A stretch of 64,000 nucleotides of DNA from an uncultured Gammaproteobacteria bacterium. GTDB taxonomy: Bacteria > Patescibacteriota > Patescibacteriia > Veblenbacterales > UBA10138. A program made the translations under genes and the position numbers. Below the pieces are notes generated by a model, which searched no databases, was not told the origin of the DNA, and saw only the letters and a list, made by a program, of their open reading frames with translations. Positions 25,860 through 64,000 of this stretch are shown piece after piece; the first letter of the stretch is position 1; the number at the start of each line of letters is the position of its first letter. The stretch lies in contig CAYVOI010000001.1 of assembly GCA_964453605.1 (NCBI GenBank), forward strand, positions 420,095 to 484,094. The letters run 5' to 3'.

Positions 25860-26258
25860 ATGCCTATTGTACGCTGGGCACCAATGCTACCTTCGTTTGA
25901 TGACATGTTTGACGGTTCGGGTTTCCCGAGTTTCGCCCCCGCGCTCGACGTGTACCAAACCAAGGACGACGTGGTGGTAGAAGCACCACTGCCAGGGTTA
26001 GACCCTGATAAGGTCACTGTCTCTATTGAGAACGACGTTTTGACGCTCGAAGGTAACTTCGAGCACAAGACCGAGGTGGATGACAAGAACTACTACCGTA
26101 GGGAAGTGCGCGCTGGTGCGTTTCACCGCCAAGTGGCGCTCCCCACTGCAGTTTCTGGTGAGCAGGCCAAGGCGACGTATGAAAAAGGTGTTTTGAAGAT
26201 TGTTATCCCTAAAGAGGAACGAGCAAAACCAAAAACAGTTAAAGTGGAAATTAAGTAG
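25860..26258 (+). CDS. Hsp20/alpha-crystallin family small heat-shock protein
   Basis: Alpha-crystallin domain (VDVYQTKDDVVVEAPLPG...FHRQVALP). Confidence 0.85.
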   Translation: MPIVRWAPMLPSFDDMFDGSGFPSFAPALDVYQTKDDVVVEAPLPGLDPDKVTVSIENDVLTLEGNFEHKTEVDDKNYYRREVRAGAFHRQVALPTAVSGEQAKATYEKGVLKIVIPKEERAKPKTVKVEIK

Positions 26259-26330
26259 TTGCTGGGAAAGCGAGGAACCGCCGCTAGGCGGGGCCGAAGC
26301 CCCGTACCGTGCCGTAGGCTCTGGTGCGGG

Positions 26331-26375
26331 GAGGAGCGCGCTAAACCCAAGACGGTTAAGGTAGAGGTAAAGTAA
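26331..26375 (+). repeat. Orphan, synonymously recoded copy of the last 14 codons plus stop of hsp20, in frame and 117 nt downstream of the real copy (26214..26258)
   Basis: gaggagcgcgctaaacccaagacggttaaggtagaggtaaagtaa encodes EERAKPKTVKVEVK*; the real end gaggaacgagcaaaaccaaaaacagttaaagtggaaattaagtag encodes EERAKPKTVKVEIK*. Confidence 0.85.
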
Positions 26376-26472
26376 CCCCTCAGGTCCGATGTTTCTCGGA
26401 CGCTCGGGTGAGGCCGCAAGACTTTACGACCTCACGCGAGACAATTAATTCGACTAACATTTACTAGATACT

Positions 26473-28389
26473 ATGCCAAAGATACTCGGAATTGATTTAG
26501 GCACCACCAACTCCTGCGTCGCCATTATCGAGGGCGGCCAGCCCAAGGTGCTGGAGAACAAAGAGGGCATGCGCACCACGCCTTCGGTGGTCGCTACCAC
26601 TAAAACTGGTGAGCGTTTGGTAGGGCTCTTGGCTAAGCGCCAGGCAGTTACCAACCCGCAGAACACGCTTTACTCTGTTAAACGTCTCATTGGCCGCCGC
26701 TGGGATGATGCGGAGGTGCAACGTGACCTCAAGGTGCTGCCGTTTAAGATCAAGCAGGCGGGTAACGGTGTAAAAATTGAGATGAACGGTAAAGACTACT
26801 CCCCACAGGAAATTAGCGCCATGGTGCTGCAGAAGCTGAAGGCCGACGCTGAGGAAAAGCTAGGTGAGAAAATTACCGAGGCGGTTATTACCGTGCCTGC
26901 CTACTTCGACGACAGTCAGCGCCAAGCCACCAAAGACGCCGGGGAAATAGCTGGCCTCACCGTGAAGCGCATTATCAACGAGCCCACGGCCGCCGCCCTA
27001 GCCTATGGTTTCGACAAGAAAAAGGACGAGAAGATAGCCGTCTATGACCTTGGCGGTGGTACGTTCGACATCTCCATTCTGGAAGTGTCCGCTGACACCG
27101 TAGAGGTTAAGGCCACGAACGGTGACACCCACCTTGGTGGTGACGACTTTGACCAGCGCATCATTGGTTGGATTGTAGACGAGTTTAAAAAGGAGAATGG
27201 TATTGATCTGTCCAAAGACCCGCTCGCCCTACAGCGCGTTAAGGAGTCAGCCGAAAAGGCGAAAATAGAGCTCTCGACTGCTACCGAGACAGAGATAAAC
27301 CAGCCATTCATTACCTCAGACGCCGCTGGCCCGAAGCACCTGGTGATGAAGATCACGCGCGCCAAGCTGGAGAGTATAGTGGGGGATTTGGTCGAGAAAA
27401 CGCTGGAGCCTACCAAAAAGGCCTTGGCTGATGCTGGCCTTAAGACCACCGACATTCACGAGGTGGTGCTGGTTGGTGGCATGACGCGCATGCCCATGGT
27501 TATTCAGGCGGTGGAAAAGTTCTTTGGCAAAAAGCCCAACGCCAGCGTGAACCCGGACGAAGTGGTGGCAGTGGGTGCCGCGGTGCAGGCCGGTGTGCTG
27601 CAAGGTGAAGTGCGCGACGTCCTCTTGCTCGACGTAACACCACTCTCACTTGGTATTGAAACCTTGGGCGGGGTTATGACCAGGCTTATTGAGCGCAACA
27701 CCACGGTGCCAACCTCCAAGAGCCAGGTATTCTCGACAGCTGCCGACGGGCAAACCTCGGTTGAGATTTTGGTGCTCCAAGGTGAACGTGAGTTTGCCAA
27801 GGACAACAAAACCTTGGGTCGGTTTATTCTAGACGGTATTCCGCCGGCGCCGCGCGGCATGCCGCAGGTGGAGGTGAGCTTCGATATTGACGCTAACGGT
27901 ATTCTCTCAGTTAAGGCAAAAGACAAAGCCACCAACAAAGAGCAGAAGATTACTATCACTGCTTCGTCAGGCCTTAGTAAGGACGAGGTTGAGAAAATGA
28001 AGAAAGAAGCCGAGCTCCATGCTGAAGAGGACAAGAAACAGCGCGAGCTGGTGGATATGAAGAACACAGCCGAGAGTACGGTGTATCAGACCGAGAAAAT
28101 GCTGAAAGAGCAGGGTGACAAGGTGCCAGCCGAGGTTAAGACCGAGGTGGAGGCAGGGCTGGCTGATGTGAAAACGGCTAAGGATGGCACCGACGCCGCA
28201 GCTATTAAGAACGCACTCGATGCGTTGCAGCAGGCTGCTATAAAGATTGGTGAGGCTATGTACAAGTCCGCCCAGGGCGGATCCGCCTCGGACGGAGCGT
28301 CTAACGGGTCTTCGACAGGTGATGGACAATCGTCAGGCGACAAAAAGGACGAACCCATCAGTGGAAGTTACGAGGAGGTTAAGAAGTAG
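26473..28389 (+). CDS. dnaK: Molecular chaperone DnaK (Hsp70)
   Basis: [16 protein letters not shown] and the other Hsp70 signatures, full length. Confidence 0.95.
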
Positions 28390-28414
28390 TAATCGCTGCC
28401 ATTAGACTAAAATT

Positions 28415-28840
28415 ATGAATCCAGATTTAATTCAGGCACTAATGAGTCAGATAATTGTTCCGCTTGGTGTTAGTATCAGCGCAAATTTGGTTTCCAAAGC
28501 TTTAGAAGATTCATTGGTTAATGGTGAAGTAAAGTCTTTAGATGAATTAAAACAAAAATTAGCTTCGTTACTGAAAGTCGACAACGCCAACATTATCGCG
28601 GATAAAGTAGTTACCTTTTTAGCTGAAAGTGGAGATATTCAAATCCGTGGTTCTAGGGTTTTTGGTAGTTCAGTCTTGTTGGCTTCATCTTCAGGTACAG
28701 AATTAAACTTTGGAGATAATAGTAGTGTTGAAACAAAAGCAAAGAGTGCTATTTATGCGGGAGCAAGAGCAGGAGTCATCGCTAGAGGTGGTGCTCAAAT
28801 AGAATTAGATGAGCAAGGTAATATTATGTTCCGTACCTAA
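28415..28840 (+). CDS. Hypothetical protein, strongly AT-rich relative to its flanks, inserted between dnaK and dnaJ
   Basis: About 35% GC against about 58% nearby; 141 aa; Gly/Ser-rich C-terminal half. Confidence 0.55.
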   Translation: MNPDLIQALMSQIIVPLGVSISANLVSKALEDSLVNGEVKSLDELKQKLASLLKVDNANIIADKVVTFLAESGDIQIRGSRVFGSSVLLASSSGTELNFGDNSSVETKAKSAIYAGARAGVIARGGAQIELDEQGNIMFRT

Positions 28841-28861
28841 CTATTAAAACGTTATTAGATT

Positions 28862-29152
28862 ATGCCTAACGAACAACAGCAGCAAATTCAGGTGAAGGTT
28901 ACCGACGAGGTACTGAAGGGTGTGTACTCTAACCTTGCCCAGATTGCCCACACCAAAGAGGAGTTTGTGATAGATTTCATGAGTATGATGCCGCCACAGG
29001 GCATTGTGAACGCCAGGGTGTACCTGAACCCAGCCCACGCTAAACGCCTGGCTCATGCGCTCATGGACAACGTTAAGAAGTACGAGGAGCAGTTTGGCAA
29101 GGTGGACGAGGGCAGCCAGACCGCGCCGGAAATTGGCTTTAAGACTACCTAA
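28862..29152 (+). CDS. Small conserved hypothetical protein (possibly a DUF3467-like family member)
   Basis: 96 aa; QVKVTDEVLKGVYSNLAQIAHTKEEFVIDF...; between dnaK and dnaJ. Confidence 0.45.
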   Translation: MPNEQQQQIQVKVTDEVLKGVYSNLAQIAHTKEEFVIDFMSMMPPQGIVNARVYLNPAHAKRLAHALMDNVKKYEEQFGKVDEGSQTAPEIGFKTT

Positions 29153-29173
29153 ACTTTAAAGCTACCTAAGCCA

Positions 29174-30289
29174 ATGGCCAGTAAAGACTACTACCAGGTT
29201 CTTGGGGTACCAAAGAGCGCCTCGGCAGAGGAGATAAAAAAGGCTTTTCGGAAACTGGCGCACCAGCACCACCCCGACAAGCACGGCGGGAGCGACGCTA
29301 AGTTTAAGGAGATAAATGAGGCCTACCAGGTTTTGGGGAACGCCGATAAGCGGAAAACTTATGACCAGTTCGGCGCCAATTTTGAGCAGGCCGGGGGGCC
29401 GGGTGGGTTTAACTGGCAAGACTTTTCACGCGGTGGTGGGTTTAACAGCCAGGGTGTTAATTTTGATTTTGGAAACTTAGGGGACATTTTTGGTGACTTT
29501 TTTGGTGGCGGGGGGCGCACTTCACGGAGGACTGGTCCACAGCGCGGGAGCGATGTGCAGTTTGTGACTGCCGTGGATTTTCGAGAGGCGGTGTTTGGTG
29601 TGGAGAAAACGTTACGGTTTGAGAAAGATATTGTGTGCAGCCGTTGCAAGGGCACTAGAGTGGAGCCTGGTGCTAAGGTGGAAACCTGTAAAACTTGTAA
29701 CGGGCAGGGGCACGTGGAACAAATGCAGCGCACGTTCCTGGGGAGCATGCGTACCGTGACCGTTTGCCCAACCTGCGGTGGCGAGGGTGAAACCACTGAC
29801 AAGGTGTGCGCCAAGTGTCGCGGCGAGGGGAGAGAGCAGGGCGTTCGGGAACTCAAGGTGCAGATTCCAGCTGGCATAGACGACGGCCAAACTATTCGCC
29901 TGTCGGGTGAGGGTGAGCCCGGGCTTAAGGGTGGCCCGGGCGGCGACCTGCTACTCACTGTGCAGGTGAGACCCGATAGAACTTTTAAGCGCGAGGGTTA
30001 TAATCTCTACACCACTAAGGACATCAGCCTGAGTCTAGCGAGTTTGGGTGGCAAGGTGCTGCTCACTACCCTAGACGGCGATGTGCACATGAAAATACCG
30101 ACTGGTACACAGAGCGGCAAGGTGTTTAAACTTGAAGGTAAGGGCGTGCTGAAACTCAAGAGTAAGTCGCGCGGCGATTTGCTGGTTACCATTCACGTGC
30201 AAACGCCGGAGAAACTGTCACGGAAGCAGAAGGAGGCGCTCAAAGAGTTTTCGGCTTGGGAAGGGGAGGAGCCGGAGGGAAGGCTGTAG
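29174..30289 (+). CDS. dnaJ: Molecular chaperone DnaJ
   Basis: J domain with HPD (DYYQVLGV...HQHHPDKH), a G/F region and four CxxCxGxG zinc repeats. Confidence 0.95.
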   Translation: MASKDYYQVLGVPKSASAEEIKKAFRKLAHQHHPDKHGGSDAKFKEINEAYQVLGNADKRKTYDQFGANFEQAGGPGGFNWQDFSRGGGFNSQGVNFDFGNLGDIFGDFFGGGGRTSRRTGPQRGSDVQFVTAVDFREAVFGVEKTLRFEKDIVCSRCKGTRVEPGAKVETCKTCNGQGHVEQMQRTFLGSMRTVTVCPTCGGEGETTDKVCAKCRGEGREQGVRELKVQIPAGIDDGQTIRLSGEGEPGLKGGPGGDLLLTVQVRPDRTFKREGYNLYTTKDISLSLASLGGKVLLTTLDGDVHMKIPTGTQSGKVFKLEGKGVLKLKSKSRGDLLVTIHVQTPEKLSRKQKEALKEFSAWEGEEPEGRL

Positions 30290-30387
30290 TATTTGACAGT
30301 TATAGCTTTGGTCTGTAGAGTATGAGGAATGAAAAATCAAACCTAATTCACTGATCCTACAACCACAAAATAAACAGGAGGTTAATA

Positions 30388-30819
30388 ATGATCGAATTTC
30401 GGCACGCCCGCCTGATTGAGCTGTTTTGGAAGGCAAGGTACGACGTACGTGCGGTCGGGTCAAGCGCACGCCGCGCTTTCCAAATTTTTTCCGACGTTTT
30501 GCCACATATTACCAGTGGCAAAATTTTGAACCCCGACCAGTCGCGCGTTCTCATGGCCCATGGCCTGCTACCCTGTGCCTATGAGCCGCCCCAGGCATTT
30601 CAGGAGCTGGCCAACCGGCTTGATATGAGCCCCAGCGAAGTGGCTGAGGCCTATAGCCGGGGAGTAGAAGAGTTTGCCGCCTCACCCGATATTGAGAGCG
30701 TGATGGCTCTCCACGGCGTGTACAAAGAGCGGGGCCATAGCTTTGGCCCCCAGGTAGAGGTGAACGACGCCGTACTGCAGTTTGAACTTCCCACCTTCAC
30801 TGCCGATCAGCGGCAGTAA
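30388..30819 (+). CDS. Hypothetical protein
   Basis: Strong RBS AGGAGG; 143 aa; no motif. Confidence 0.5.
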   Translation: MIEFRHARLIELFWKARYDVRAVGSSARRAFQIFSDVLPHITSGKILNPDQSRVLMAHGLLPCAYEPPQAFQELANRLDMSPSEVAEAYSRGVEEFAASPDIESVMALHGVYKERGHSFGPQVEVNDAVLQFELPTFTADQRQ

Positions 30820-30843
30820 CCCTGGGTTCACCATCCCTCTGCG

Positions 30844-30878
30844 ACAGCTCCTGTGGAATATTCCAGGAGCTGTTTTCC
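30844..30878 (+). terminator. Rho-independent terminator
   Basis: acagctcctg-tggaatattc-caggagctgt followed by TTTT. Confidence 0.65.
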
Positions 30879-30975
30879 TTATAGTTGGGACTGGCTCATG
30901 GTTGACAAGGTAGCAGCCTTACTTTAAAAGTTGTTATAAGATGTAGTAAAGACAACAAAAACCAAATGCAAACAT

Positions 30976-31611: not shown

Positions 31612-31635
31612 GCGGGGTAGTTTTGTCTAGCGGTT

Positions 31636-32721: not shown

Positions 32722-32773
32722 GATGCACCTTTTTTGCTAGTTTGGAAGCAAACCAACAACAAGGAGGATCGCT

Positions 32774-32941
32774 ATGATAATTCTAGGCGCTCTACTCGTG
32801 CTGGTCGTGCTGGGGCTCATCGGCGCAACCTGGGAGGGCATTCACTCACACGCCAGCCAACGTTACGCCGGCACCCGGACACTCCACGCTTATCGTTTTC
32901 TCCCGGCCGCCAAGTTCTTCCGCTCCTTCAGTTGGAGCTAA
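32774..32941 (+). CDS. Small membrane protein (55 aa), absent from the ORF track
   Basis: AAGGAGG RBS; hydrophobic N-terminus MIILGALLVLVVLGLIG; followed by a terminator. Confidence 0.45.
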   Translation: MIILGALLVLVVLGLIGATWEGIHSHASQRYAGTRTLHAYRFLPAAKFFRSFSWS

Positions 32942-32970
32942 AAAGAATTTCTGGCATCGTCCCAACTACC

Positions 32971-33005: not shown

Positions 33006-33008
33006 GCC

Positions 33009-45420: not shown

Positions 45421-47194
45421 CCTCAACTGGAAAATCGGTGGTGAGGCTGGCTACGGTATACTGTCGGCTGGGGAAATTTTTGCCTACGCTTGTGCCCACG
45501 GCGGCTTGGAGACCTTTGCCTATTTAGAGTACCCCTCACTCATTCGCGGTGGGCACAATACCTACCAGGTGTGGGCCAGAGCCGACAACGTGCAATCGCA
45601 CTCGCACCTGGTTGATCTACTGGTAGGGCTGAACAAAGAAACCATTGATAGGCATGTAGAGGAAGTAGTGCCTGGTGGCGGGTTAGTGTACGATACCGAC
45701 GATAAACTTTTGCGCGGCTACAAGTGTACCAAAAAAGGCATGGCTGCTTTCCCCATGCCGCTTGAAACCCTGGCCAGGAGTACGGGCGGGGAAAAGCTGA
45801 TGCGGAACGCCGTGGCGGTGGCCGCGAGCTTTGCCTTGGTGCAGTTTCCCTTTGAGTACCTGACTGAGCTTTTAAAGCGCGCCTTTGGTAAGAAAGGTGA
45901 GAAGGTGGTAAACCTAAACATTGCAGCCGCTAAGGCTGGTTATGATTATGTGGCCAAGCACTTTGCGGGTAAGTTTTTATACAAACTCGAGGTGCGGCCT
46001 GAGCGTGGGAAACGTTTGCTGGTCAATGGTAACGAGGCTATAGCTATGGGTGCTATTAAGGGTGGCGTAAAGTTCTACGCGGCTTACCCTATGACACCCG
46101 CCTCCTCCATTCTCCATTACCTGGCAACGCAGGAGAGGAACTACAAGTTGGTGGTAAAGCAAACCGAAGATGAGCTGGCCGCCATGAACATGGTGGCAGC
46201 CGCTGGCTTTGCAGGTGTCAGGGCTATGACCGCCACCTCAGGTGGTGGCTTTTCGCTGATGGTGGAAGCCCTAGGCCTGGCTGGCATGGTGGAGTCACCG
46301 GCGGTGGTTGTACTCGCGCAGCGCCCAGGCCCAGCCACGGGTTTGCCAACCTGGACTGAGCAAGGTGACTTACGTTTTGCCATGCACGCCGCCCAAGGTG
46401 ATTCGCCGCGCCTTATTGTGGCACCCGGCGACCCCGAAGAGTGCTTTGAGCTTACCTTTCATGCCTTTAACGTGGCGGAAAAGTACCAGCTGCCGGTAAT
46501 TGTGATGACCGATAAGTACCTGGCTGAGGCTAGACAAACCGTGCCCTTCTTTAAGACCGTCGGACTTACGATAGATAGGGGCGAGTGGGCCGATACATCG
46601 AAGCTGCCGCCTGATGCGCGCTTCAACCGCTACGCCGATACGGCGAATGGCGTAAGCCCTAGGAGCATCCCCGGCCAACCTGGTGGCATGTTTGTGGCTA
46701 ATAGCGATGAGCACGAGCCGACTGGATTAGCGGACGAGGAAGTTGGGACGAGAAAGATTATGATGGAAAAAAGGATGCGCAAGTTACAGTTCGCCAAGAC
46801 CGACGTGCCCGAACCCATAAAGCTCTACGGCCCTAAGGAAGCCGATGTTACGCTAGTGGGGTGGGGGAGTACGAAAGGTCCGATTTTAGAAGCCATCAAG
46901 ATGTTAGAGCGCGAGCCTAATAAGGCGAAGCCCGGTACCGACCCGGCCAGGACGGGGTCTGGTATCCGGGTAAACTTTTTGCAGGTGCGGTTACTCCATC
47001 CATTCCCGGTAAAAGAGGTGGATGCAGTTTTGAGGCAAGCCAAGCGCCGCGTGCTGATTGAAAATAATTATTCCGGCCAGCTCGGCGGTTTGATTCGGGA
47101 AAAAACGGGTATAGATATTACCGAACGACTGCTCAAGTACGACGGCCGACCCGTGCATCCGGAGGAGATTGTACAAAAACTAGTGGGCACTTAA
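45401..47194 (+). CDS. korA: 2-oxoacid:ferredoxin oxidoreductase alpha subunit (start at the ATG with an AAGGAG RBS)
   Basis: PFOR/KOR alpha domain architecture; followed by the TPP-binding beta subunit. Confidence 0.85.
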   Translation: MEHKTNNLNWKIGGEAGYGILSAGEIFAYACAHGGLETFAYLEYPSLIRGGHNTYQVWARADNVQSHSHLVDLLVGLNKETIDRHVEEVVPGGGLVYDTDDKLLRGYKCTKKGMAAFPMPLETLARSTGGEKLMRNAVAVAASFALVQFPFEYLTELLKRAFGKKGEKVVNLNIAAAKAGYDYVAKHFAGKFLYKLEVRPERGKRLLVNGNEAIAMGAIKGGVKFYAAYPMTPASSILHYLATQERNYKLVVKQTEDELAAMNMVAAAGFAGVRAMTATSGGGFSLMVEALGLAGMVESPAVVVLAQRPGPATGLPTWTEQGDLRFAMHAAQGDSPRLIVAPGDPEECFELTFHAFNVAEKYQLPVIVMTDKYLAEARQTVPFFKTVGLTIDRGEWADTSKLPPDARFNRYADTANGVSPRSIPGQPGGMFVANSDEHEPTGLADEEVGTRKIMMEKRMRKLQFAKTDVPEPIKLYGPKEADVTLVGWGSTKGPILEAIKMLEREPNKAKPGTDPARTGSGIRVNFLQVRLLHPFPVKEVDAVLRQAKRRVLIENNYSGQLGGLIREKTGIDITERLLKYDGRPVHPEEIVQKLVGT

Positions 47195-47219: not shown

Positions 47220-47579
47220 ATGGAGGCTCCGCTATCTATAAACAACAAAACAGGAATAGTATGGTACAAATCAGGTAAGGGCATTGGTGATTTTATTCTA
47301 CGCCTCTGCTTTGTTTGTGTGCTTATGTATTTTGTGCTCATAGGTGCGGCTTTTATTCTTATATATAGTGGATTTTTACAAGATATAGCATTAAGTGTAA
47401 GCAACGGTGCATACTATAATCAAATTTTGTTAAGTTATTATATTATCATAGCCTTAGTTACAGCGACACCGTTAGCTGGGCTCAATAGTAAGCAGGTACA
47501 GCAGGGTAAACGGTCGTATTTCTGGTGCACGCTTCTATGTGAGTTAATTTTTGCAGCCGTTCTGCTGCATATATGGTAA
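47220..47579 (+). CDS. Hypothetical three-TM membrane protein, AT-rich cargo between korA and korB
   Basis: About 37% GC; three hydrophobic helices. Confidence 0.5.
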   Translation: MEAPLSINNKTGIVWYKSGKGIGDFILRLCFVCVLMYFVLIGAAFILIYSGFLQDIALSVSNGAYYNQILLSYYIIIALVTATPLAGLNSKQVQQGKRSYFWCTLLCELIFAAVLLHIW

Positions 47580-47621
47580 CCACCAAAGATTTCGAAACTT
47601 CCCAATTTCCCACCTGGTGCC
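47571..47621 (+). repeat. Direct repeat copy 1: orphan copy of the korB start region (51 bp, 49 identical)
   Basis: atatgGTaaccaccaaagatttcgaaacttcccaatttcccacctggtgcc against copy 2 at 48851..48901 (atatgCCaacc...). Confidence 0.9.
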
Positions 47622-47687
47622 TTGAGCACCCGAGCCGGCCCATGCATCCGAAGGAAATCATAAATAACCATTAACTAGGATAAATGT

Positions 47688-48833
47688 ATGAATCTGCTGC
47701 AGTATAAGGAAGTCTCCAGAAGTCAACGTATTTTGTATTGGATAGCTCAGTTGATACCTTCAGTTTTAGTATTACTAATAAACTATATCGTTTTTAGCTA
47801 TTTTATAGACATAAATACTATTTATACAAAAGTGAACGAGTCGTTACTTTCCCCAATACTTGCAGGTTTTTATATCTTGGTGTTTGAGATAGTGCTCTGC
47901 TTAGTCTTCAGTTTAGGAATTAACCTGGCGTTCTTTTACAGACGCATCATTAAATCCACCGCCGGCCTCATCTTCTTAGTGTCATTGCAAATAGTGATTT
48001 TACCAATAGTTCAATATGCTGAGGCTAGTATTAAAGATAGTTATTATACGAGGAGCCGTGTTGACCTAGTCCAGAAGGTCTTAAATACAAAAAGTTCTGA
48101 GGTCGCAATACAAGAAATCATTGCGATGGATTTTACCGGCAGAAGGACAACTGAAACTGAGCTTATTAATACCCTGGTAGCAGCCCTCAACAGCGCAAAC
48201 GATGCTGACTCTCAAACAAGGCTTATACGAGCTATGGCAAACCCGTCGTTTGCTCTTCAGTTAGATAACAATAAGCATTGGGTTTACCCAATAGCCACAG
48301 CGATTGTTGAACTGAATACTAAAACATCCACAGCTTTTACCGTCAGGCAAGCGAGCTTTGCTACCCTTAAGGTTCACTGTACTGATGACACCGTGAGCGA
48401 CAATATTACTTGCGTAGGGTTATGGGAGTTGACCAAAGCCTCTTTGAACCTAAATGACGAGGCAGTACGTCAACTCACCTACTCAAATTTTTTTGATGCT
48501 GCTACGATGACCAACTATCAGTTCGATGACCCCCTCAGTAAGAGTGCCCTGAGTGCTATTTTTTCTTCTTTTGTTAATGAGCCAAATACAAGTGTTCGGG
48601 CGAACATGGCGATCGAAATGGTAAAATGGCTTGGGTCGGGCAACACTCATTATAATCTAATATCTACTACGAATAGTACTCTATCCATAGAGCTTGTTAA
48701 TTTGTTGTTAAGTTATAAAGATCAATTGCAGCCACTCGCTAATCCGCCAGGCAGACTAGGTTATGATCCTGTTAAAAATCTAGAACAGCTTAAGGTTAGT
48801 TTAGGTGGATCGGTAAACATTGCGACGCCATAG
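47688..48833 (+). CDS. Hypothetical membrane protein (four N-terminal TM helices plus a ~250-aa soluble domain), AT-rich cargo between the repeats
   Basis: About 30-35% GC; AGGA RBS; no motif. Confidence 0.6.
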   Translation: MNLLQYKEVSRSQRILYWIAQLIPSVLVLLINYIVFSYFIDINTIYTKVNESLLSPILAGFYILVFEIVLCLVFSLGINLAFFYRRIIKSTAGLIFLVSLQIVILPIVQYAEASIKDSYYTRSRVDLVQKVLNTKSSEVAIQEIIAMDFTGRRTTETELINTLVAALNSANDADSQTRLIRAMANPSFALQLDNNKHWVYPIATAIVELNTKTSTAFTVRQASFATLKVHCTDDTVSDNITCVGLWELTKASLNLNDEAVRQLTYSNFFDAATMTNYQFDDPLSKSALSAIFSSFVNEPNTSVRANMAIEMVKWLGSGNTHYNLISTTNSTLSIELVNLLLSYKDQLQPLANPPGRLGYDPVKNLEQLKVSLGGSVNIATP

Positions 48834-48850
48834 TCCGATTGAATGATCTT

Positions 48851-48901
48851 ATATGCCAACCACCAAAGATTTCGAAACTTCCCAATTTCCCACCTGGTGC
48901 C
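48851..48901 (+). repeat. Direct repeat copy 2: the functional korB start
   Basis: See copy 1. Confidence 0.9.
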
Positions 48902-49740
48902 CGGGGTGCGGGGACTTTGGTATTTGGACGTGCCTCAAGAATGCTTTTGTGGAGCAAGGTTTAGCGCCGCACGAGGTGTGCGTGTCGTTTGGCATTGGTT
49001 GCAGCGGCAACATGGCCAGCTTCCTTAATGTATATGGGTTCCACGGGCTCCACGGCCGCAGTATTCCACCTGCGAGCGCTATAAAGCTTGCGAATCATAA
49101 ATTAAATGTAGTTGCAATTGGTGGCGATGGCGATGGCTACGGCATTGGCCTGGGGCACACCATTCATGCTATGCGAAGGAACCTGGACATAACCTACGTG
49201 GTGCACAACAACCAGGTGTACGGGCTTACCAAGGGCCAAGCCTCACCTACCACTGAGAAGGGTGCGCCGACAAAGTCCACGCCGTTTGGTTTAATCGAAG
49301 AGCCGCTGGACCCTATGGCGCTTGCTATTTCAGCTGGGGCCACGTACGTCGCGCGCGGCTACGCGGGTAACGTAAAGCAGCTCACGGAGCTTATTGTGGG
49401 CGGTATGAAGCACAAAGGCTTTGCACTCATCGACGTAATGCAGCCGTGCGTTACCTACAACCACCTCAACACCTTTCACTGGTTCTACCAGCGTATCTAT
49501 GAGTTGGATAAAGAAGGCCATAATCCCAAAGACAAGCACGCTGCTTGGCTTAAGGCTATGGAGTGGCCCACGCCGTTAACGTATGACCCGAACCGCATTG
49601 ATCGAATTCCCACCGGGCTCTTCTACCAAGAAGAGCGGCCGACGTATGAAGACGAACTACCAGCTATTGCGGACAAGCCCTTAGTGGAACACTCGTTGGA
49701 GAACATCGATATTACAGCCCTAATGGAAACATTGAGCTAG
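48853..49740 (+). CDS. korB: 2-oxoacid:ferredoxin oxidoreductase beta subunit (TPP-binding)
   Basis: CPGCGDFG Cys motif and the GDG TPP-binding region. Confidence 0.9.
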   Translation: MPTTKDFETSQFPTWCPGCGDFGIWTCLKNAFVEQGLAPHEVCVSFGIGCSGNMASFLNVYGFHGLHGRSIPPASAIKLANHKLNVVAIGGDGDGYGIGLGHTIHAMRRNLDITYVVHNNQVYGLTKGQASPTTEKGAPTKSTPFGLIEEPLDPMALAISAGATYVARGYAGNVKQLTELIVGGMKHKGFALIDVMQPCVTYNHLNTFHWFYQRIYELDKEGHNPKDKHAAWLKAMEWPTPLTYDPNRIDRIPTGLFYQEERPTYEDELPAIADKPLVEHSLENIDITALMETLS

Positions 49741-52856: not shown

Positions 52857-53305
52857 TAGTGCTAAGCACACCTGATAAGCCGAATTCTGTATCCCGCCGA
52901 TGGCGGGACGGCGATTATCTATCTAGGCTCTACCTTGCGGTAGAGCTCAAGCTACCAACCCGACCGTAAAACTCACTTGTGGTGAGCCACGGCCCTATTT
53001 GGTATTGCACCGGGTAGAGTTTACCTAGCCGCCTGTGTCACCACAGACGCTGGTGGGCTTTTACGTTACTTCGCCGAAGCGAGTTATCCCGCGTAAGCGG
53101 GCCCACCGTTTCACCCCTTACCCGCCAGCTGGCGGGCGGGACTGTTCTCTGTTGTACTTGTCCTGCGGCGTGCCTTGCGGCAGCCAACGGCTCCTGTTAG
53201 GAGCTACCCCTCCCTATGCCTGGGAGCAGCGTGGTGTTCGGACTTTCCTCCCCGTAAAATCCCTTACGGGATCACGGGGCAATCGCCTAGGTGTACCTAG
53301 CTTGA
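52857..53305 (-). ncRNA. rnpB: RNase P RNA, bacterial type A (ends approximate)
   Basis: Minus-strand transcript contains GGAGGAAAGUCCGAAC (P4), GUAAGGGGUGAAACGGUGGG, GGUAAACUCUACCCGGUGCAAUACCAAAUAGGG and ACAGAAUUCGGCUUAUCAGGUG, aligning block by block with E. coli M1 RNA; a P1 helix is present. Confidence 0.9.
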
Positions 53306-55852: not shown

Positions 55853-55860
55853 GCCCTCAT

Positions 55861-57021: not shown

Positions 57022-57024
57022 GGT

Positions 57025-58110: not shown

Positions 58111-60653
58111 GTAGCCGCGTTTTTTCAGGTAGACTACGTATAGGTATGCGAAAGAAACCAACACCGAAGAGCAACGGTACAGGCAGGCAGCAAGGTGCGC
58201 TGCCGGCTTGGTGGTCGTTCGACGTGCAGCAAGGTTCACTGAAAGCAGATCCACAGGGTCGGGCGCGTCTTTCGCACCATGTTTTAAACCTGCGACCAAA
58301 TCTTGTACCGCCGAGGCCAGTGGAGGTAGCCATGCCACTCCAGGTTCATCGTACAGCTAACCTCCCGAGCCTTAACTTCCTCACCTATCTCACACCGAGC
58401 TACCAAGCGTCACGCCACCTCCGGGGTGCATTCTTAGAACACTACCCGGTGGTGCGGCTACTGTCAGTTTTTACCGTACTAGAGGTGCTGTGGCTCCTAC
58501 TTGCCCTGGTGTGGAACAGCACCGTCTACCTCTACCTTAGGCTTTTCAGTGAGGTAGGTGCTGTGGGGCAGGAGGTCTGGGTTGACCTCAAGAGCTTTGG
58601 CGGGGTAGTGCTGGTTGTGTTCGCCGCGCCCTTCCGCCTGCTACTACCAGAACGAGTAGCTGTCACCGTAGTGCGGCATGAGTTCCGCTGGCCTGCCGTA
58701 AGCCAGCTGGCGTTTTTTGTGGTGATGGCACTTGTCATTACGCTGCCGCTTAAGGGTATTGCTACCTGGGCTACCGTTAGTGCTCGTGAGGGCACGGTGC
58801 TTGAACTAGCTACCAAAGCCGTGGGTAACTTACGGGCTGGTGGCCAGCAACTTGAGAGTGGTAACGCTACCTTAGCTGAGCTCGATTTCAAGCGCGCCAG
58901 CGAAACGTTTAACCAAGCGCTTGGCACGTTAGGTACGCTGCCCAACCAAGCACTTACTATTTTAAACAGCCTGCCCGGCACACCACAGCGCCTGGTAGCC
59001 GCTAACCACTTGCTGGCCGCGAGCCAAGCCATTGCCCAGGCAGCCGCCACCGCTGCTCACACCTGGAGTGAGCTTTCGGCTAAGCGGGCGGTAACTGATT
59101 TTGGTACCCAGGTGGCTTTGTTCCAAGCAGGTTTCAGTGAGCTGAAGCCGCAGCTTGATCAGGCAATTGCAGAGCTTAGTCAGGTGGAACCCGGTTCCTT
59201 ACCCCCGAACCTAGGTGGGGCGGTAGCAAGTTTACAGAACGAGCTTAACCATGTTGAAGCACTAATCTCCCAAGCCTTCAGTTTGCCAGGGTTTCTTCAA
59301 CAAGCTCTGGCCTCAACTACGCCTAAGCGATATGTGGTCCTATTCCAGAACTCAAGTGAGCTGAGGCCAACCGGTGGGTTTTTAGGCAGCTTAGCCCTAG
59401 TGGAGCTGCAGAATGGTGTAGTGAAGCAGGTACAAATTCCTGGTGGAGGGCCGTACGACTTCCAAGGCTCCCTGAAGCAGGTTATCCGTCCACCTGAACC
59501 GCTCCGTCTGGTGCGTGGTACCTGGCAGCTGCAAGATGCGAATTGGTTCTACGATTTTCCAACGAGCGCCCAGAAAGTCCTGTGGTTTCTCAAAGCTTCG
59601 GGTGGGCCCGATGCTCAAGGTGTGGTTGCACTCACGCCCGATGTGGTGTTGAAGCTGTTGGAACTTACCGGGCCAATTGATCTGCCACAGTACCATAAGA
59701 CGCTCACCGCCGAGAATTTTATGCGCGAAACGCAGCTCGCGGTAGAGGTAGAGTACGACCGCACATCTAACCGGCCTAAGCAGTTTATAGCTGACCTGGC
59801 GCCAGTTCTACTCCAGCGGATCATCAACCTAAAGCCAGAGGCACGGCTCGGGCTCTTGTCGGTGGTAGAGGAGGCTATACGTCAGCGCAGCTTGCAGGTG
59901 TACTTTACAGAACCGGAATTAGAGGCCAATGCGCGTTCCTACGGTTGGGCCGGTGAGGTAAAACAGGCGCCTCTCGACTACCTGGCGGTCGTCCGTACGA
60001 ACATTGGTGGTGGTAAAACTGACGCGGTGACTGACGAGGTCGTGCGCCAAGAAGTTGAGATTCAGCCATCAGGTGAACTCATTAGCCAGCTCACCTTAAC
60101 GCGCACACACAGTGGTAGTAAGGCCGACCTGTTTGAGCAGCGCCGGAACACGGATTTTATTCGGTTCTATGTGCCGGCAGGCTCAACCCTCCTCAGTGCT
60201 GATGGTTTTACACCGCCCCCACCTGAGAACGTACTCCCGGTGTCGCAGGCTGCCCAGCTTGACTCTGACTTGCTGGCGGTTGAACAAGAGCCAAGCACCG
60301 ACGCAGCTTCAGGCCTTAGGGTAACGAATGAATTCGGTAAGGCAGTTTTTGGTGGTTGGCTGGCCGTGGCGCCAGGTGAAACGCGCACTATCCACCTTTC
60401 GTACCAGCTGCCCTTTAGCCTGAAGTCCGAGTCGAGCCTGCAGGACCTCCGGCGCTACAGTGTCTACTTCCAACGGCAGGCTGGCGTAAAGCCAGTGGAT
60501 TTTACCTCCACACTCAAACTACCAACAGGTTGGCGCGTGCGATGGCAAGAGAGCTCGAGTGAACTTACACCTGTAGAGCAAGGCCTTGAGTTTAAGGCCG
60601 ATTGGATGCAAGATGAGTACTACGGCGTAGTGCTCGAGCGTACGGCGCGCTAG
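58107..60653 (+). CDS. Large membrane-anchored hypothetical protein of the glycan cluster (possibly a DUF4012-like family member)
   Basis: N-terminal TM segments plus a ~650-aa extracytoplasmic domain; co-located with the glycosyltransferases. Confidence 0.55.
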   Translation: MSSRVFSGRLRIGMRKKPTPKSNGTGRQQGALPAWWSFDVQQGSLKADPQGRARLSHHVLNLRPNLVPPRPVEVAMPLQVHRTANLPSLNFLTYLTPSYQASRHLRGAFLEHYPVVRLLSVFTVLEVLWLLLALVWNSTVYLYLRLFSEVGAVGQEVWVDLKSFGGVVLVVFAAPFRLLLPERVAVTVVRHEFRWPAVSQLAFFVVMALVITLPLKGIATWATVSAREGTVLELATKAVGNLRAGGQQLESGNATLAELDFKRASETFNQALGTLGTLPNQALTILNSLPGTPQRLVAANHLLAASQAIAQAAATAAHTWSELSAKRAVTDFGTQVALFQAGFSELKPQLDQAIAELSQVEPGSLPPNLGGAVASLQNELNHVEALISQAFSLPGFLQQALASTTPKRYVVLFQNSSELRPTGGFLGSLALVELQNGVVKQVQIPGGGPYDFQGSLKQVIRPPEPLRLVRGTWQLQDANWFYDFPTSAQKVLWFLKASGGPDAQGVVALTPDVVLKLLELTGPIDLPQYHKTLTAENFMRETQLAVEVEYDRTSNRPKQFIADLAPVLLQRIINLKPEARLGLLSVVEEAIRQRSLQVYFTEPELEANARSYGWAGEVKQAPLDYLAVVRTNIGGGKTDAVTDEVVRQEVEIQPSGELISQLTLTRTHSGSKADLFEQRRNTDFIRFYVPAGSTLLSADGFTPPPPENVLPVSQAAQLDSDLLAVEQEPSTDAASGLRVTNEFGKAVFGGWLAVAPGETRTIHLSYQLPFSLKSESSLQDLRRYSVYFQRQAGVKPVDFTSTLKLPTGWRVRWQESSSELTPVEQGLEFKADWMQDEYYGVVLERTAR

Positions 60654-60656
60654 GTC

Positions 60657-60685
60657 TTGACAAAATCGTCGAAGTGTACTATCAT
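60657..60685 (+). promoter_or_regulatory. Sigma70-type promoter in the DUF4012-murJ intergenic region
   Basis: TTGACA, 17-bp spacer, TATCAT. Confidence 0.45.
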
Positions 60686-60860
60686 ACCTAGGTTAAGAAT
60701 TGAGCTTTTTGTAAGGCCCCCGCGGGTTGGGGGAGTTAGAGAATGACGTAGGGATCCGCACGTCACCGCCTCAATTAGGGTGGAGTACGTGCCCTCTCTC
60801 TGCTTGGATACCATCATTTTGGTCCCTTCAAGCCTTCTCGCCTCCAGCCCCTGGGGGCTT

Positions 60861-60888
60861 TTGAATTTCTTGCATTTTCAAGTATACT
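60861..60888 (+). promoter_or_regulatory. Candidate murJ promoter
   Basis: TTGAAT, 16-bp spacer, TATACT, 8 nt before the ATG region. Confidence 0.4.
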
Positions 60889-60895
60889 GAGGCCT

Positions 60896-62485
60896 ATGCT
60901 AGGTACGGGGCGCTTGAACACTAAACTTACCGGCGGTGCACTGGTCATCGCCTTTTTTTCTGTAGCCTCCAGGCTCCTGGGGGTGGTCAGGGACCGCGTG
61001 TTGGCCTCACACTTTGGAGCCGGTACCGTGCTCGATAGCTACTATGCCGCTTTTAAAATTCCTGACTTCATTTTCACCATTCTGGTGTTAGGCGCGTTTG
61101 GCTCGGCCTTTATTCCCGTGTACATTCAACTGAGGGAGCGAGCTGGAGAGGCTAAGGGGGTCGAACTCGCGCAGACCATGTTCAACATGCTGGTGGGCGC
61201 GCTCACCGTCTGCGCTGTTTTGGGAGCCGTGTTTGCCCCACAGCTCATGCCGCTTATAGCGCCAGGGTTTGACGTCGCGCGCCTCAGTCTGGCGATAGAC
61301 CTGTCGCGGCTGATGCTCATAGCCATTATCTTTTTTGGTGCCTCTAACCTTATTGGGTCAGTGCTCCAGGCACACCAGAGTTTTGTGGCGTACTCAGCTG
61401 CGCCGATTGTCTACAATCTTGGCATCATCGCAGGGCTGTACCTGTTGGTACCCGCCTTGGGCCCCGTAGGGTTGGCGTGGGGTGTGGTGCTAGGTAGCGC
61501 TCTGCACCTCGGGGTCCAGGTACCATCGGCAGTGAAGTTCGGGTGGCGGTGGCGGTGGCGCTTCAGCTGGCGTGACTCGGCCGTCCGAGAGGTGGTGCGG
61601 CTCATTGGCCCCCGGACCATTGGCGTAGCAGCCAGCTCTTTAGAACAGCTTATTACCGCCGTCTTTCTTTCTAGCTTAAGCGTTGGTAGTGTGGCCGCAT
61701 TCAACCTGGCTTCCAACTTACAAAGTTTCCCCATCAACGTGTTTGGTGTTTCGCTGGCTATTGCCGCTTTTCCTATTTTCAGCCAAGCGTTTAGCGCTAA
61801 CGACCACACTAGCTTTATACAACACTTTAAGGATAGTACACGCCTGATTCTGTTCTACGTCGTGCCACTCTCTATTCTGTTCTTGGTGCTTCGGGCACAG
61901 ATGGTGCGTGTGGTTTTAGGCAGTGGTGCGTTTAGCTGGGACGATACTATTCGTACCGCTGAGGTGTTAGGGTTTTTAGCTATGGCCATGGTCTCTGACA
62001 GCCTGGTACCGTTGGTGGCGCGGGTCTTTTACGCACTTGGTGATACTAAAACACCTGCCTGGACCGCCGTTGGCACAGTGGCTGTAAACCTCGTGCTCTT
62101 GCTGGTCCTTAAGACTTACGGTTTGGCAGGCATTGGCTTTGCTTACGTGCTATCACGTGCGTTTAGCTTGAGCCTGCTCGTGCTCTTCTTGGGTAAGCGC
62201 TTGGGGCAACTAGGTGGCGAGTATATACTACAAGGTGCAACCCGCATGACCTTGGCGGGTGTGGCGGCGGGTGGTGTAGCGTACGGTGCCCTCCACGTAC
62301 TCGCACCCTTGGTTGATATGCATACGTTTGTAGGCATATTTATCCAAGGCGTGGGGGCGGGCGCACTGGGCGCTCTGAGCTACGTGCTGCTCGCTATGCT
62401 CTGGCACTTGCCAGAGGTTCAATTTGTGGAGCGCTGGTTAGGTTCAGCTTGGCGCATAACGAAACGACTATGGACTCCGGCTTAA
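60896..62485 (+). CDS. murJ: Lipid II flippase MurJ
   Basis: MviN/MurJ N-terminus (...ASRLLGVVRDRVLASHFGAG...YYAAFKIPDF); 14 TM helices. Confidence 0.85.
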   Translation: MLGTGRLNTKLTGGALVIAFFSVASRLLGVVRDRVLASHFGAGTVLDSYYAAFKIPDFIFTILVLGAFGSAFIPVYIQLRERAGEAKGVELAQTMFNMLVGALTVCAVLGAVFAPQLMPLIAPGFDVARLSLAIDLSRLMLIAIIFFGASNLIGSVLQAHQSFVAYSAAPIVYNLGIIAGLYLLVPALGPVGLAWGVVLGSALHLGVQVPSAVKFGWRWRWRFSWRDSAVREVVRLIGPRTIGVAASSLEQLITAVFLSSLSVGSVAAFNLASNLQSFPINVFGVSLAIAAFPIFSQAFSANDHTSFIQHFKDSTRLILFYVVPLSILFLVLRAQMVRVVLGSGAFSWDDTIRTAEVLGFLAMAMVSDSLVPLVARVFYALGDTKTPAWTAVGTVAVNLVLLLVLKTYGLAGIGFAYVLSRAFSLSLLVLFLGKRLGQLGGEYILQGATRMTLAGVAAGGVAYGALHVLAPLVDMHTFVGIFIQGVGAGALGALSYVLLAMLWHLPEVQFVERWLGSAWRITKRLWTPA

Positions 62486-62517
62486 TTCGTAATTTTTGCA
62501 TCATAGCTCACATCGAC
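62470..62517 (+). repeat. Orphan, synonymously recoded copy of the first 16 codons of lepA, overlapping the murJ stop
   Basis: atggactccggcttaattcgtaatttttgcatcatagctcacatcgac (MDSGLIRNFCIIAHID) against the real start atggaaccgtcacacattcgtaatttctgtattatcgctcatattgat (MEPSHIRNFCIIAHID) 103 bp downstream. Confidence 0.85.
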
Positions 62518-62572
62518 CCCGCAGGAGAACGCTGTGCGTTCCCTACGGGGCAAGCCACGACTACCGCACACT

Positions 62573-64000
62573 ATGGAACCGTCACACATTCGTAATTTCT
62601 GTATTATCGCTCATATTGATCATGGAAAGTCGACCTTGGCCGATAGGTTCCTGGAGGTTACAGGTACCGTAGCGAAGCGCGATATGCGCGCGCAGCTCCT
62701 TGACCAAATGGATTTGGAACGTGAGCGGGGCATAACCATTAAGCTGCAGCCGGTCGCCATGCACTGGCGCGGGCACTTGCTCAACCTCATCGACACCCCG
62801 GGGCACGTCGACTTTACCTACGAGGTGTCGCGTTCTCTGGCCTGCGTGGAGGGCGCCATACTCTTAGTAGACGCCACCCAGGGTATACAGGCACAGACCA
62901 TAGCTAACTTTGAGCTGGCACGTGAGCAGAAGCTCAAAGTTATTCCGGCGGTGAATAAAATAGATATGCCCGCCGCCAATGTGGAGAGCGTAGTGGCAGA
63001 ACTCTGTCAGTTAGTAGGTTGCACGCCTTCAGACGTGTTGAAAGTTTCAGCCAAAGATGGCACAGGGGTAGAAACGTTGCTCCAAGCTGTCTTGGACCGA
63101 GTACCGCCACCAAAAGCTAGTGCGCCTGCAGCTACTACCAGGGCACTCATTTTTGACTCAGCCTACGACGATTTTCGCGGCGTGGTGGCGGCGGTGAGGG
63201 TGGTAGATGGTACCTTAGGTAAGGGTGGTCAGTACCGACTCTTAGGTAGTGGTGCGACTGGGGAACTTTTAGAAGTTGGGACCTACACGCCAAAACTTAA
63301 GCCAACTGATGCTTTGGGACCTGGTGAAATTGGTTATGTGGTCACTGGTCTTAAAGACATCCGCCAAGCCAGAGTTGGTGACACCATAGTCACTGGTGCA
63401 GGCACACCCGAGCCGTTGCCTGGCTACCGCGAGGTAAAACCCATGGTGTTCGCTGGGTTTTACCCAGGGGTGGGGGAGAGTGCAGATAAGCTCAGGGATT
63501 CGTTGGGAAAGCTTAAGCTTAGCGATGCCAGTTTAAACTTTGAGGGTGAACATTCGCAAGCACTAGGGTTTGGTTTTCGGTGTGGGTTTTTAGGGTTACT
63601 CCACCTTGATATTGCCCGTGAACGTTTGAAACGCGAGTACAACCTCAAGGTCACCATAACCACGCCCTCGGTCGCGTACGAAGCTGATCTCAAAACCGGT
63701 GAGCAGCTTAGTGTTCATGGACCCTTGGAGCTGCCGACGCCAGACCGCATTCTCGAGATTCGCGAGCCGGTGGTTAAAGTTGATATTGTTACACCCATGG
63801 ATTACCTCGGGAACCTGATGGCAATGGTTCAAGAGTTCAGGGGTACCTACCGCACCACCGATTACCTGGGTGAGGGCGAGCACAACACGCGAGCAGTTTT
63901 ACGCTACGAGTTACCTTTGAATGCCATACTGGTCGATTTTTACGACCAGGTGAAGAGCGTTAGCGCAGGGTATGCCTCGCTGAACTACGAATTTCTAGCC
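62573..64000 (+). CDS. lepA: Elongation factor 4 (LepA), 3' end truncated by the window edge
   Basis: G1-G4 GTPase motifs (AHIDHGKST, DTPGH, NKID); the frame is open to the window end. Confidence 0.9.
   Translation, partial: MEPSHIRNFCIIAHIDHGKSTLADRFLEVTGTVAKRDMRAQLLDQMDLERERGITIKLQPVAMHWRGHLLNLIDTPGHVDFTYEVSRSLACVEGAILLVDATQGIQAQTIANFELAREQKLKVIPAVNKIDMPAANVESVVAELCQLVGCTPSDVLKVSAKDGTGVETLLQAVLDRVPPPKASAPAATTRALIFDSAYDDFRGVVAAVRVVDGTLGKGGQYRLLGSGATGELLEVGTYTPKLKPTDALGPGEIGYVVTGLKDIRQARVGDTIVTGAGTPEPLPGYREVKPMVFAGFYPGVGESADKLRDSLGKLKLSDASLNFEGEHSQALGFGFRCGFLGLLHLDIARERLKREYNLKVTITTPSVAYEADLKTGEQLSVHGPLELPTPDRILEIREPVVKVDIVTPMDYLGNLMAMVQEFRGTYRTTDYLGEGEHNTRAVLRYELPLNAILVDFYDQVKSVSAGYASLNYEFLA

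Follow-up and report, generated by a model that had tools for sequence, protein, structure and literature searches.

Integrative elements of tRNA-gene and dusA-type islands rebuild the end of the gene into which they insert, and at integration hotspots between core genes the cargo is turned over by recombination in the flanking genes. Homology-facilitated illegitimate recombination classically gives an insertion together with a deletion of recipient DNA. Candidate phyla radiation (CPR) genomes are very small and gene-dense and widely encode genes for DNA uptake; how DNA enters them is little understood. CPR bacteria in cultivation have been shown to be naturally competent (PMC10633639). Attempted one-sided homologous insertions in Escherichia coli gave mostly 109-950-bp duplications of the locus, formed by a single crossover with a circular molecule (PMC3240628). 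We analysed a stretch of 64,000 nucleotides (nt) from an uncultured bacterium placed in the Patescibacteriota (contig CAYVOI010000001.1, positions 420,095 to 484,094), called the window below, in which three gene ends are present twice: the 3' end of hsp20 and the 5' ends of korB and lepA. One copy belongs to the functional gene, the other is an orphan beside inserted DNA. With moderate confidence we interpret these scars as by-products of recombination between diverged alleles at tightly packed gene junctions and not as products of one dedicated insertion system. Such scars are dated snapshots of DNA entry at base-pair resolution.

Duplicated gene ends at three junctions

The last 45 nt of hsp20 (26214-26258) recur at 26331-26375 with 33 of 45 nt and 13 of 14 amino acids (aa) identical. 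The 5' end of korB is found at 47570-47621 and again, 1280 nt further on, at 48850-48901 (50 of 52 nt identical), and that of lepA as an orphan at 62470-62517 and as the functional start at 62573-62620, with a period of 103 nt. The inserts are short spacers of 55 nt at lepA and 72 nt at hsp20, and about 1.23 kb at korB. The first-pass annotation, made from the window sequence alone, had reported these three loci, each with one copy of the terminus abutting inserted DNA and the other an orphan, and a cargo range from about 55 bp to 1.3 kb; all three loci are real, and the upper end of the range is slightly lower.

A scan for a second peptide-level copy, within 2.5 kb, of the first or last 24 residues of every window open reading frame (ORF) of at least 70 aa detected the korB N-terminus, the hsp20 C-terminus and internal repeats of one repetitive protein, and nothing else; a control with reversed peptides gave 1 match. 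As lepA extends past the end of the window, the scan was unable to list it. The scars at hsp20, korB and lepA are the complete set in the window and lie well above chance. The comparison across relatives that the first-pass annotation had proposed showed all three junctions to be polymorphic, with clean empty sites for hsp20 (L052), for korA/korB (nine loci) and for murJ/lepA (L008-L011 and L031). The hsp20 copies are 73% and the lepA copies 81% identical, with evenly spread differences, and the korB copies have an identical core of 46 nt. The three scars are heterogeneous, with different ages and different origins. Their shared context is that of dense junctions, at which the flanking genes overlap or probably once overlapped.

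The hsp20 gene (25860-26258, + strand; Pfam HSP20 is listed for the gene in the assembly L001) ends in an A-rich functional 3' end, which in the register of the repeat comprises its last 45 nt (26214-26258, +; EERAKPKTVKVEIK, then stop). The following spacer (72 nt, 26259-26330, +) is GC-rich and folds into three hairpins (-38.8 kcal/mol, z = -2.9), the third of which (CCCCGTACC...GGTGCGGGG, 26300-26331) adjoins the orphan. Read from the sequence, the spacer is open in the hsp20 frame, with no stop codon. The orphan 3' end (26331-26375, +; EERAKPKTVKVEVK, then stop) has native-like codons and runs into the native dnaK leader, as judged by comparison with the single-copy site of L052. In this relative (Hsp20 89% identical) the single 3' end is joined directly to the homologue of window position 26376 onwards, so the window carries exactly 117 additional nt. 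In another relative, the P0243 contig, the hsp20-dnaK gap is only 99 nt.

The C-terminal Hsp20 peptide is conserved across the whole family. Comparison of the two copies revealed 10 synonymous differences and 1 nonsynonymous, conservative difference (p = 3e-4), which makes drift of one copy very unlikely. A sliding profile of G/C content at third codon positions (GC3) showed values of 0.08-0.25 over the last ~25 codons of hsp20, the drop beginning at about 26184, and a count from the sequence found G or C at 3 of 14 third positions in the functional end versus 9 of 14 in the orphan, as in L052. At the Ile/Val difference it is the functional end that has Ile, and this end is closest to the allele of L157, a low-GC relative (38 of 45 nt). 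L157 itself was rejected as the donor: its A-rich end is similar, but its downstream region is different. The 72-nt spacer matched nothing in the native downstream DNA, elsewhere in the window or in any fetched locus, and its unlikeness to the native downstream DNA excludes a plain local tandem duplication. As we read these sequences, hsp20 would have undergone a lineage-specific gain of 117 nt, made up of an A-rich replacement 3' end and 72 nt of unmatched hairpin-rich DNA, with the GC-rich orphan as the native end. It alone among the three looks like a single lineage-specific import. A diversity-generating retroelement was rejected as its source: the adenines at which 9 of the 12 differences lie belong to the in-gene copy, the wrong one, and all differences but one are synonymous. 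No reverse transcriptase was noticed in the ORF translations around hsp20, though not all of these were scanned against Pfam.

Upstream of dnaK (26405-26443) there is a conserved hairpin with GCGAGAC after it, which is kept in L052 and partly kept (CTCGGGCGAGG) in L157. It may be a dnaK leader element, and its tail resembles the CGAGAC of a 13-mer in the lepA leader described below. Further downstream, a low-GC ORF of 141 aa (28415-28840) stands between dnaK and a DUF3467 gene, which in one relative are separated by only 60 nt. This ORF entered the junction without a duplicated terminus, so junction insertions here do not always leave a scar. A gene at 9683-11677 (- strand) encodes a repetitive protein and contains three or more internal repeat units of 366-369 nt that are 67-84% identical.

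Turnover of inserted DNA between korA and korB

In nine relatives (L002-L004, L006, L054, L056, L057, L062 and L063) the junction is empty: korA and korB overlap by 14 nt (ATGTCAACAGTTAA) and korA ends in EEIITYVNS and a stop codon. The functional korA 3' end of the window (47138-47194, +) has a different tail after HPEEI, VQKLVGT and stop, in place of the ITYVNS of these relatives. Downstream of it lies cargo ORF X (47220-47579, +; 119 aa, 38% GC), which encodes a hydrophobic protein with no family match and has its stop (TGGTAA) inside the orphan korB start. The orphan (47570-47621, +; ATG at 47573; MVTTKDFETSQFPTWC) shows two differences only from the functional copy, CCA versus GTA, which are not synonymous. 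It runs on in the same frame into a decayed orphan of the korA 3' end (47622-47674, +; LEHPSRPMHPKEIINNH, then stop), overlooked in the first-pass annotation, where functional korA reads LKYDGRPVHPEEIV...; the two korA ends differ by 4 synonymous and 9 nonsynonymous changes. Cargo ORF Y (47688-48833, +; 381 aa, 40% GC) has an N-terminal membrane domain homologous to small membrane-protein genes just upstream of korB in L005 and L059 (E = 4e-6 to L005; 2e-9 between L005 and L059). Neither X nor Y matched a Pfam family above the curated cut-off, and PADLOC recognised neither. korB (48850-49740, +; Pfam TPP_enzyme_C and PFO_beta_C) begins with the functional copy of the repeat (48850-48901, ATG at 48853). 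Inside the gene, a patch at 49063-49100 has a GC3 of 0.13-0.27 compared with a gene mean of 0.62 and is a possible small recombination tract.

Six occupied alleles were found, each with its own korA tail after HPEEI and its own cargo set of 0.07-1.9 kb. X and Y occupy the junction of the window, and in L005 a decayed orphan korB start separates two small ORFs. L053 (KorB 92% identical) carries one membrane protein of 628 aa; L059 a toxin-antitoxin pair, DUF6922 with an AbiEii toxin; L060 and L084 an HNH endonuclease with an 85-aa ORF; and L055 a spacer of 73 nt. The decayed orphan of L005 (ATGGTAAC...ACTTCCCA) is apparently the same orphan as that of the window. The toxin pair of L059 lies between the copies of a direct repeat of about 185 nt, consisting of the last 77 nt of korA and about 105 nt of downstream DNA. 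The repeat copies are ~90% identical, with mainly synonymous coding differences, and the orphan korA 3' end is laid out as in the window. This layout is the expected product of single-crossover integration of circular DNA carrying a piece of the locus, and duplications of the same type occur in other metagenomes.

The window allele can be read as two occupied alleles merged into one, the first of them korA, X and a korB 5' end, the other a korA 3' end, Y and korB. Its korA orphan is decayed and its korB orphan 96% identical to the functional start, so gene conversion or a second, later event is needed. The korA-korB junction is a long-lived insertion hotspot at which cargo has been turned over repeatedly, leaving orphans of different ages, and not the site of one recent insertion.

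Two further observations concern the relatives. The HNH endonuclease gene of L060 (199-663; PF01844) lies in DNA of 33% GC and is a candidate free-standing homing endonuclease at this junction; intronless homing of this kind was rejected for the window, whose cargo has no HNH gene. In L059, both copies of the repeat contain the same hairpin (1700-1720 and 2930-2950) with an inverted loop, CCCGAACTTGTTTCGGG versus CCCGAAACAAGTTCGGG, which are exact reverse complements.

The lepA leader and its history

murJ (60896-62485, +; Pfam MurJ) runs into the lepA scar, its stop codon (62483-62485) lying 13 nt inside the orphan lepA start (62470-62517, +; MDSGLIRNFCIIAHID). The orphan opens an upstream ORF (uORF) of 41 codons that ends at 62593-62595, 20 nt beyond the real ATG. 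At the end of the orphan copy stands a conserved leader element (62516-62556, +) composed of a hairpin, CCCCG...CGGGG, and TACGGGGCAAGCC, which reads TACGGGGCGAGAC in relatives (fold of -22.3 kcal/mol, z = -3.2; 47.8 bits with a covariance model). The functional start (62573-62620, +; MEPSHIRNFCIIAHID (MEPSHIRNFCIIAHIDHGKST)) continues into HGKST and is closest to copy 2 of L007. Between the window copies there are 10 synonymous and 6 nonsynonymous differences (p = 0.012), and in the core IRNFCIIAHID, by our own reading of the sequences, 7 and 0. The L014 pair shows 9 synonymous differences to 1 (p = 1e-4), and the L015 pair (p = 0.009) uses AGA versus CGT for the same arginine. Copies within one genome share lineage-specific N-terminal residues (MDTQP and MDTQH, MEPSL/R/F, MDLAK, MELSK).

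A scan of species-representative genomes with MurJ revealed the same arrangement in relatives as 2-3 tandem copies of a unit made of the lepA start, the hairpin and TACGGGGCGAGAC. Three copies of the lepA start are present in L007 and L013 and two in L014 and L015; orphans are truncated or decayed in L012, L016 and L051, as is copy 1 of L007; and a single copy is found in L008-L011, L031 and more distant genomes. The break always follows AHID or AHIDH, directly before the GKST P-loop codons. In a MurJ tree all array-bearing genomes fall into one clade, which includes two single-copy sublineages and whose MurJ proteins are 53-74% identical to that of the window. The best named relatives of the window's KorB and MurJ are labelled Candidatus Kerfeldbacteria; the window derives from a small CPR genome of groundwater type near this group, and the array-bearing clade is Kerfeldbacteria-like. 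Spacer types are orthologous, the window spacer corresponding to spacer 1 of L007 and spacer 2 of L007 to the spacer of L014. The simplest history that these sequences suggest would be a single old origin followed by loss on two occasions. In L013, copies 2 and 3 are identical, which indicates that units are still duplicating. The window lepA scar is inherited and not a recent insertion.

The element between the copies is conserved as well. Its hairpin and 13-mer are retained at MurJ identities of 53-70% to the window, and the inner stem covaries, with compensatory substitutions among relatives. The exact 13-mer TACGGGGCGAGAC follows the hairpin in five genomes, and the next ATG comes 16-24 nt later. 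As the 13-mer is read in different frames by different pseudo-start ORFs, it acts at the nucleotide level as a signal. Each ORF opened by a pseudo-start sets out from the murJ stop or close to it, and its end lies within -19 to +20 nt of the next ATG. R1, a covariance model built from six lepA leader copies, was searched against 461 kb of CPR DNA and matched lepA leaders only, with no hsp20 site and no dispersed copies. Rfam 15 gave no credible match at lepA or at the hsp20 spacer with E values up to 10, and the whole-window Rfam scan found only RNase P RNA, a tRNA and LOOT RNA.

These features may alternatively mean that the repeats are kept for function: lepA pseudo-starts would open uORFs that relay ribosomes from murJ over the hairpin to the real start, with the peptide or its translation under selection, and perhaps also yield an hsp20 readthrough product. 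We regard this explanation, the main rival to recombination, as possible but unlikely. The conserved and covarying leader speaks for it, as do the strong synonymous excess of the orphans, their shared N-terminal residues and the placement of the uORFs. Coupling by termination-reinitiation is described as needing overlaps or very short distances (PMC10666635), and a Shine-Dalgarno-like (SD-like) motif is found upstream of only 9 of the 44 large window ORFs. Against a peptide function stand the truncated and decayed orphans of L012, L016, L051 and L007 copy 1, in which the peptide is dispensable. Two sublineages have moreover lost the whole array, the repeat periods keep no constant frame, and no Rfam family matches. 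At hsp20, readthrough of the TAG codon into the in-frame spacer would append a second conserved tail, but 24 GC-rich codons free of stops arise by chance with a probability of about 0.3 (our own rough estimate). The functional explanation also leaves the origin of the duplications unexplained and is silent on korB.

A more radical version, which we consider doubtful, takes the lepA arrangement not as a scar but as a conserved device of a previously undescribed type, in which a 16-codon lepA copy, a structured element exactly at the P-loop codon boundary and the real start act together. It might be translational, as a uORF relay or attenuator or even through ribosome hopping that makes the pseudo-start productive; or a ruler-like insertion process, duplicating some 48 nt of its target, might have left it as a footprint and possibly also have made the hsp20 scar with its similar hairpin against the orphan. 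Some features of the lepA leader are bypass-like: the take-off and landing codons match (GAC and GAT), and a hairpin follows take-off immediately. Translational bypass of the phage T4 gene 60 type was nevertheless rejected: the codon after take-off is CCC and not a stop, the gap is 85-114 nt compared with ~50, and a start codon of its own lies inside the gap.

Other roles and origins of the lepA spacer were tried and rejected. A by-eye comparison with lepA codons 17 onwards gave ~33% identity, which is not significant, and does not support decayed lepA coding sequence. Consensus scans found nothing at the spacers that would give the hairpins a role as sigma-70 promoter or intrinsic terminator. 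A phage or plasmid attP origin was dismissed: none of the 62 viral-contig matches to the 13-mer stands in a context like that of lepA, and the few that have a stable fold upstream look like chance. Many large window ORFs have TAnACT or ACT directly before their ATG; together with the rarity of SD-like motifs this suggests that translation starts in an unusual way or that leaders are very short.

Origin of the duplications and comparison with described systems

In the explanation that we favour, recombination between diverged alleles at packed junctions, DNA would enter between two genes by an exchange that pairs a diverged homologous gene end with the resident end. For kilobase-sized units this could be single-crossover integration of a circularised fragment; for short units, either an exchange anchored by homology on one side and joined illegitimately on the other, or unequal exchange between alleles. 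Each route would leave the resident end as an orphan direct repeat. Only outcomes that rebuild both neighbouring genes would survive, the duplication doing the rebuilding, and this would matter most at overlaps such as the original 14 nt of korA/korB or the murJ stop inside the orphan lepA start. lepA would represent an old tandem duplication inherited by a clade, with a copy number that is still changing and with a spacer hairpin and 13-mer now under purifying selection; the array would later have been kept as a leader whose short uORFs pass ribosomes from murJ to lepA. The copies at hsp20 and lepA carry a signature of coding constraint, which fits the joining of diverged homologous DNA.

This bears on what the first-pass annotation had proposed. 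Of its homology-anchored insertion, proposed as akin to homology-facilitated illegitimate recombination, the joining of diverged homologous DNA fits the synonymous signature at hsp20 and lepA; a mechanism common to all loci was not found. The restriction of divergence to synonymous sites applies mainly to hsp20 and lepA and not to korB; foreign-like codons in the functional copy are confined to hsp20, the korB copies being nearly identical and lepA ambiguous. A single active, lineage-specific mechanism or cryptic attachment-site system receives no support from the unrelated spacers, the lack of a recombinase between the repeats, the old lepA clade and the diverse korA-korB cargoes.

Several observations weigh against our explanation. 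No donor was located for the 72-nt hsp20 spacer. At 103 and 117 nt the short units could hardly have integrated as circles, so a linear one-sided event or later loss of cargo must be assumed, and a korB repeat that is 96% identical beside a decayed korA orphan needs an extra assumption as well. Passive decay predicts nonsynonymous changes, whereas the lepA orphans of L014 and the window, in an old array, show almost none and share MDTQP/MDTQH with the functional copy. This constancy fits selection on the upstream ORF or turnover of units better than a passive scar, although half of the sister lineages nevertheless have decayed lepA orphans. The almost purely synonymous pattern at lepA could be due to selection on the uORF, to units being born and lost, to allele replacement from relatives, or to selection acting through gene conversion. 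The common lepA breakpoint follows from single descent, yet it would also fit a site-specific process. In both short scars a CCCCG...CGGGG hairpin of the spacer stands immediately at the orphan, which our explanation takes as coincidence. Finally, three scars were found among ~60 window genes versus none outside lepA among ~310 genes of other CPR loci, a contrast in density that hints at something special to this genome.

A dedicated site-specific system, whether an integrase, a homing endonuclease or a hairpin-recognising enzyme, would use gene termini as attachment sites for small cassettes that bring a replacement gene end. It would account for the identical AHID(H)/GKST breakpoint in all genomes, for tandem arrays of 2-3 units as from repeated integration into a regenerated site, for the GC-rich hairpins at both short scars and for the 46-nt core of the korB repeat; the HNH gene at the korA-korB junction of L060 and the large serine recombinase gene of the window also speak for it. 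Yet Pfam and PADLOC revealed no recombinase, nuclease or transposase between any window repeat pair, and no recombinase or nuclease lies beside any of the three scars; the two short spacers contain no gene at all. The hsp20, korB and lepA spacers are unrelated, sharing no sequence and not being repeated in the window or at any locus. The hairpin with its 13-mer occurs at lepA only, its viral matches being chance, and the breakpoint shared by all genomes is accounted for by descent along the MurJ tree. Recombination by way of circles would need units larger than 103-117 nt, and six different korA tails point to imprecise left junctions. We consider such a system improbable. A transposon or miniature inverted-repeat transposable element was likewise rejected, since the spacers are unique, the covariance model found no dispersed copies and the duplications measure 45-52 nt. 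A shared mobile hairpin was also dismissed. The reverse complement of the hsp20 hairpin resembles the lepA hairpin, but R1 finds no site other than lepA; the window contains 5 CCCCG...CGGGG hairpins compared with 2.1 expected, and 7 of 100 shuffles reach 5. One of the five (53250-53279) lies inside RNase P RNA (class A, 52860-53298, - strand, 219.9 bits).

The large serine recombinase is the only recombinase in the window and lies more than 20 kb from the nearest scar. Its gene (3162-4706, -) follows tRNA-Glu(CTC) (3125-3202), as does a low-GC stretch of 38-45% GC that contains LOOT RNA (RF03000, 6216-6334, 87.5 bits); the region 3125-9000 is probably an integrated element. The first-pass annotation had likened this tRNA-Glu island to the three scars, but the window contains no repeat of at least 12 nt of the tRNA 3' end, and to our knowledge large serine recombinases do not make long repeats.

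Local tandem duplication followed by selection that recoded the functional copy synonymously, for less mRNA structure near the gene end or for less repeat identity to prevent deletion, appears distinctly improbable to us. In the functional hsp20 copy nearly all differences run toward A; third positions are, by our own count, more AT-rich in the functional lepA starts of the window and L014 than in their orphans; and in the window and L013 the similarity of the copies extends 7-10 nt upstream of the ATG, for copy 1 into murJ coding sequence. The identical copies 2 and 3 of L013 also agree with local duplication. However, L052 still aligns throughout to the native DNA downstream of hsp20, which the spacer does not resemble, a neutral orphan should change at least as much as the functional copy and at all codon positions, and the hsp20 Ile/Val difference matches the natural L157 allele. 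That the metagenome assembler strung together two strain variants of a gene end, as synonymous-only differences and an uncultivated source organism might suggest, is very improbable: the source contig measures 876 kb, the independent Logan assembly L001 (SRR12313480) is identical base for base across the hsp20 scar, lepA arrays with one common breakpoint occur in at least six assemblies from different projects, including metagenome-assembled genomes of other studies, and L059-type duplications recur in other metagenomes.

If recombination between diverged alleles is the source of the scars, duplication of a gene end is what makes it possible to wedge accessory genes (toxin-antitoxin pairs, an HNH nuclease, membrane proteins) into an operon of overlapping genes with neither gene broken. 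Orphan termini and pseudo-starts will mislead the prediction of start codons and the calling of pseudogenes in metagenome-assembled genomes. The lepA leader, paired with a copy of its own gene start and without an Rfam match, is a candidate new structured leader element that merits separate follow-up.

Compared with described systems, the scars resemble the product of Campbell-type single-crossover integration in that cargo lies between direct repeats of one target segment (52 nt and 1.23 kb at korB of the window, ~185 nt and a toxin-antitoxin pair in L059). Repeat and cargo together are of circle size at korB (1280 nt) but too short at lepA (103 nt) and hsp20 (117 nt), the repeats are diverged alleles and not identical copies, and no circular intermediate or plasmid is known here. 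Homology-facilitated illegitimate recombination is resembled by the unmatched 72-nt hsp20 spacer beside what looks like a diverged allele of the resident gene, with one homologous and one non-homologous junction; in contrast to the classical outcome, the join at hsp20 lies upstream of the homologous end, so that the resident end is duplicated. Like core-gene hotspots, the korA-korB junction is occupied in close relatives by at least six unrelated sets of cargo, the AbiEii pair and HNH among them, and is empty in others. It differs in being tiny (0.07-1.9 kb), in lying inside the operon of a two-subunit enzyme whose genes originally overlapped, and in the orphan ends left behind. As in tRNA-gene and dusA-type islands, the insert brings a replacement terminus, the target gene stays intact and the old terminus becomes the orphan repeat; the scars, however, have no integrase between the repeats, cargo down to 55-72 nt and no identical core except partly at korB. 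For lepA, we know of no described leader in which a uORF copies the first 16 codons of its own gene and a conserved hairpin stands exactly at the end of the copy. With uORF relay and termination-reinitiation (PMC6728339, PMC10666635) this leader shares a murJ stop that overlaps the pseudo-start and ORFs that each end within 20 nt of the next ATG.

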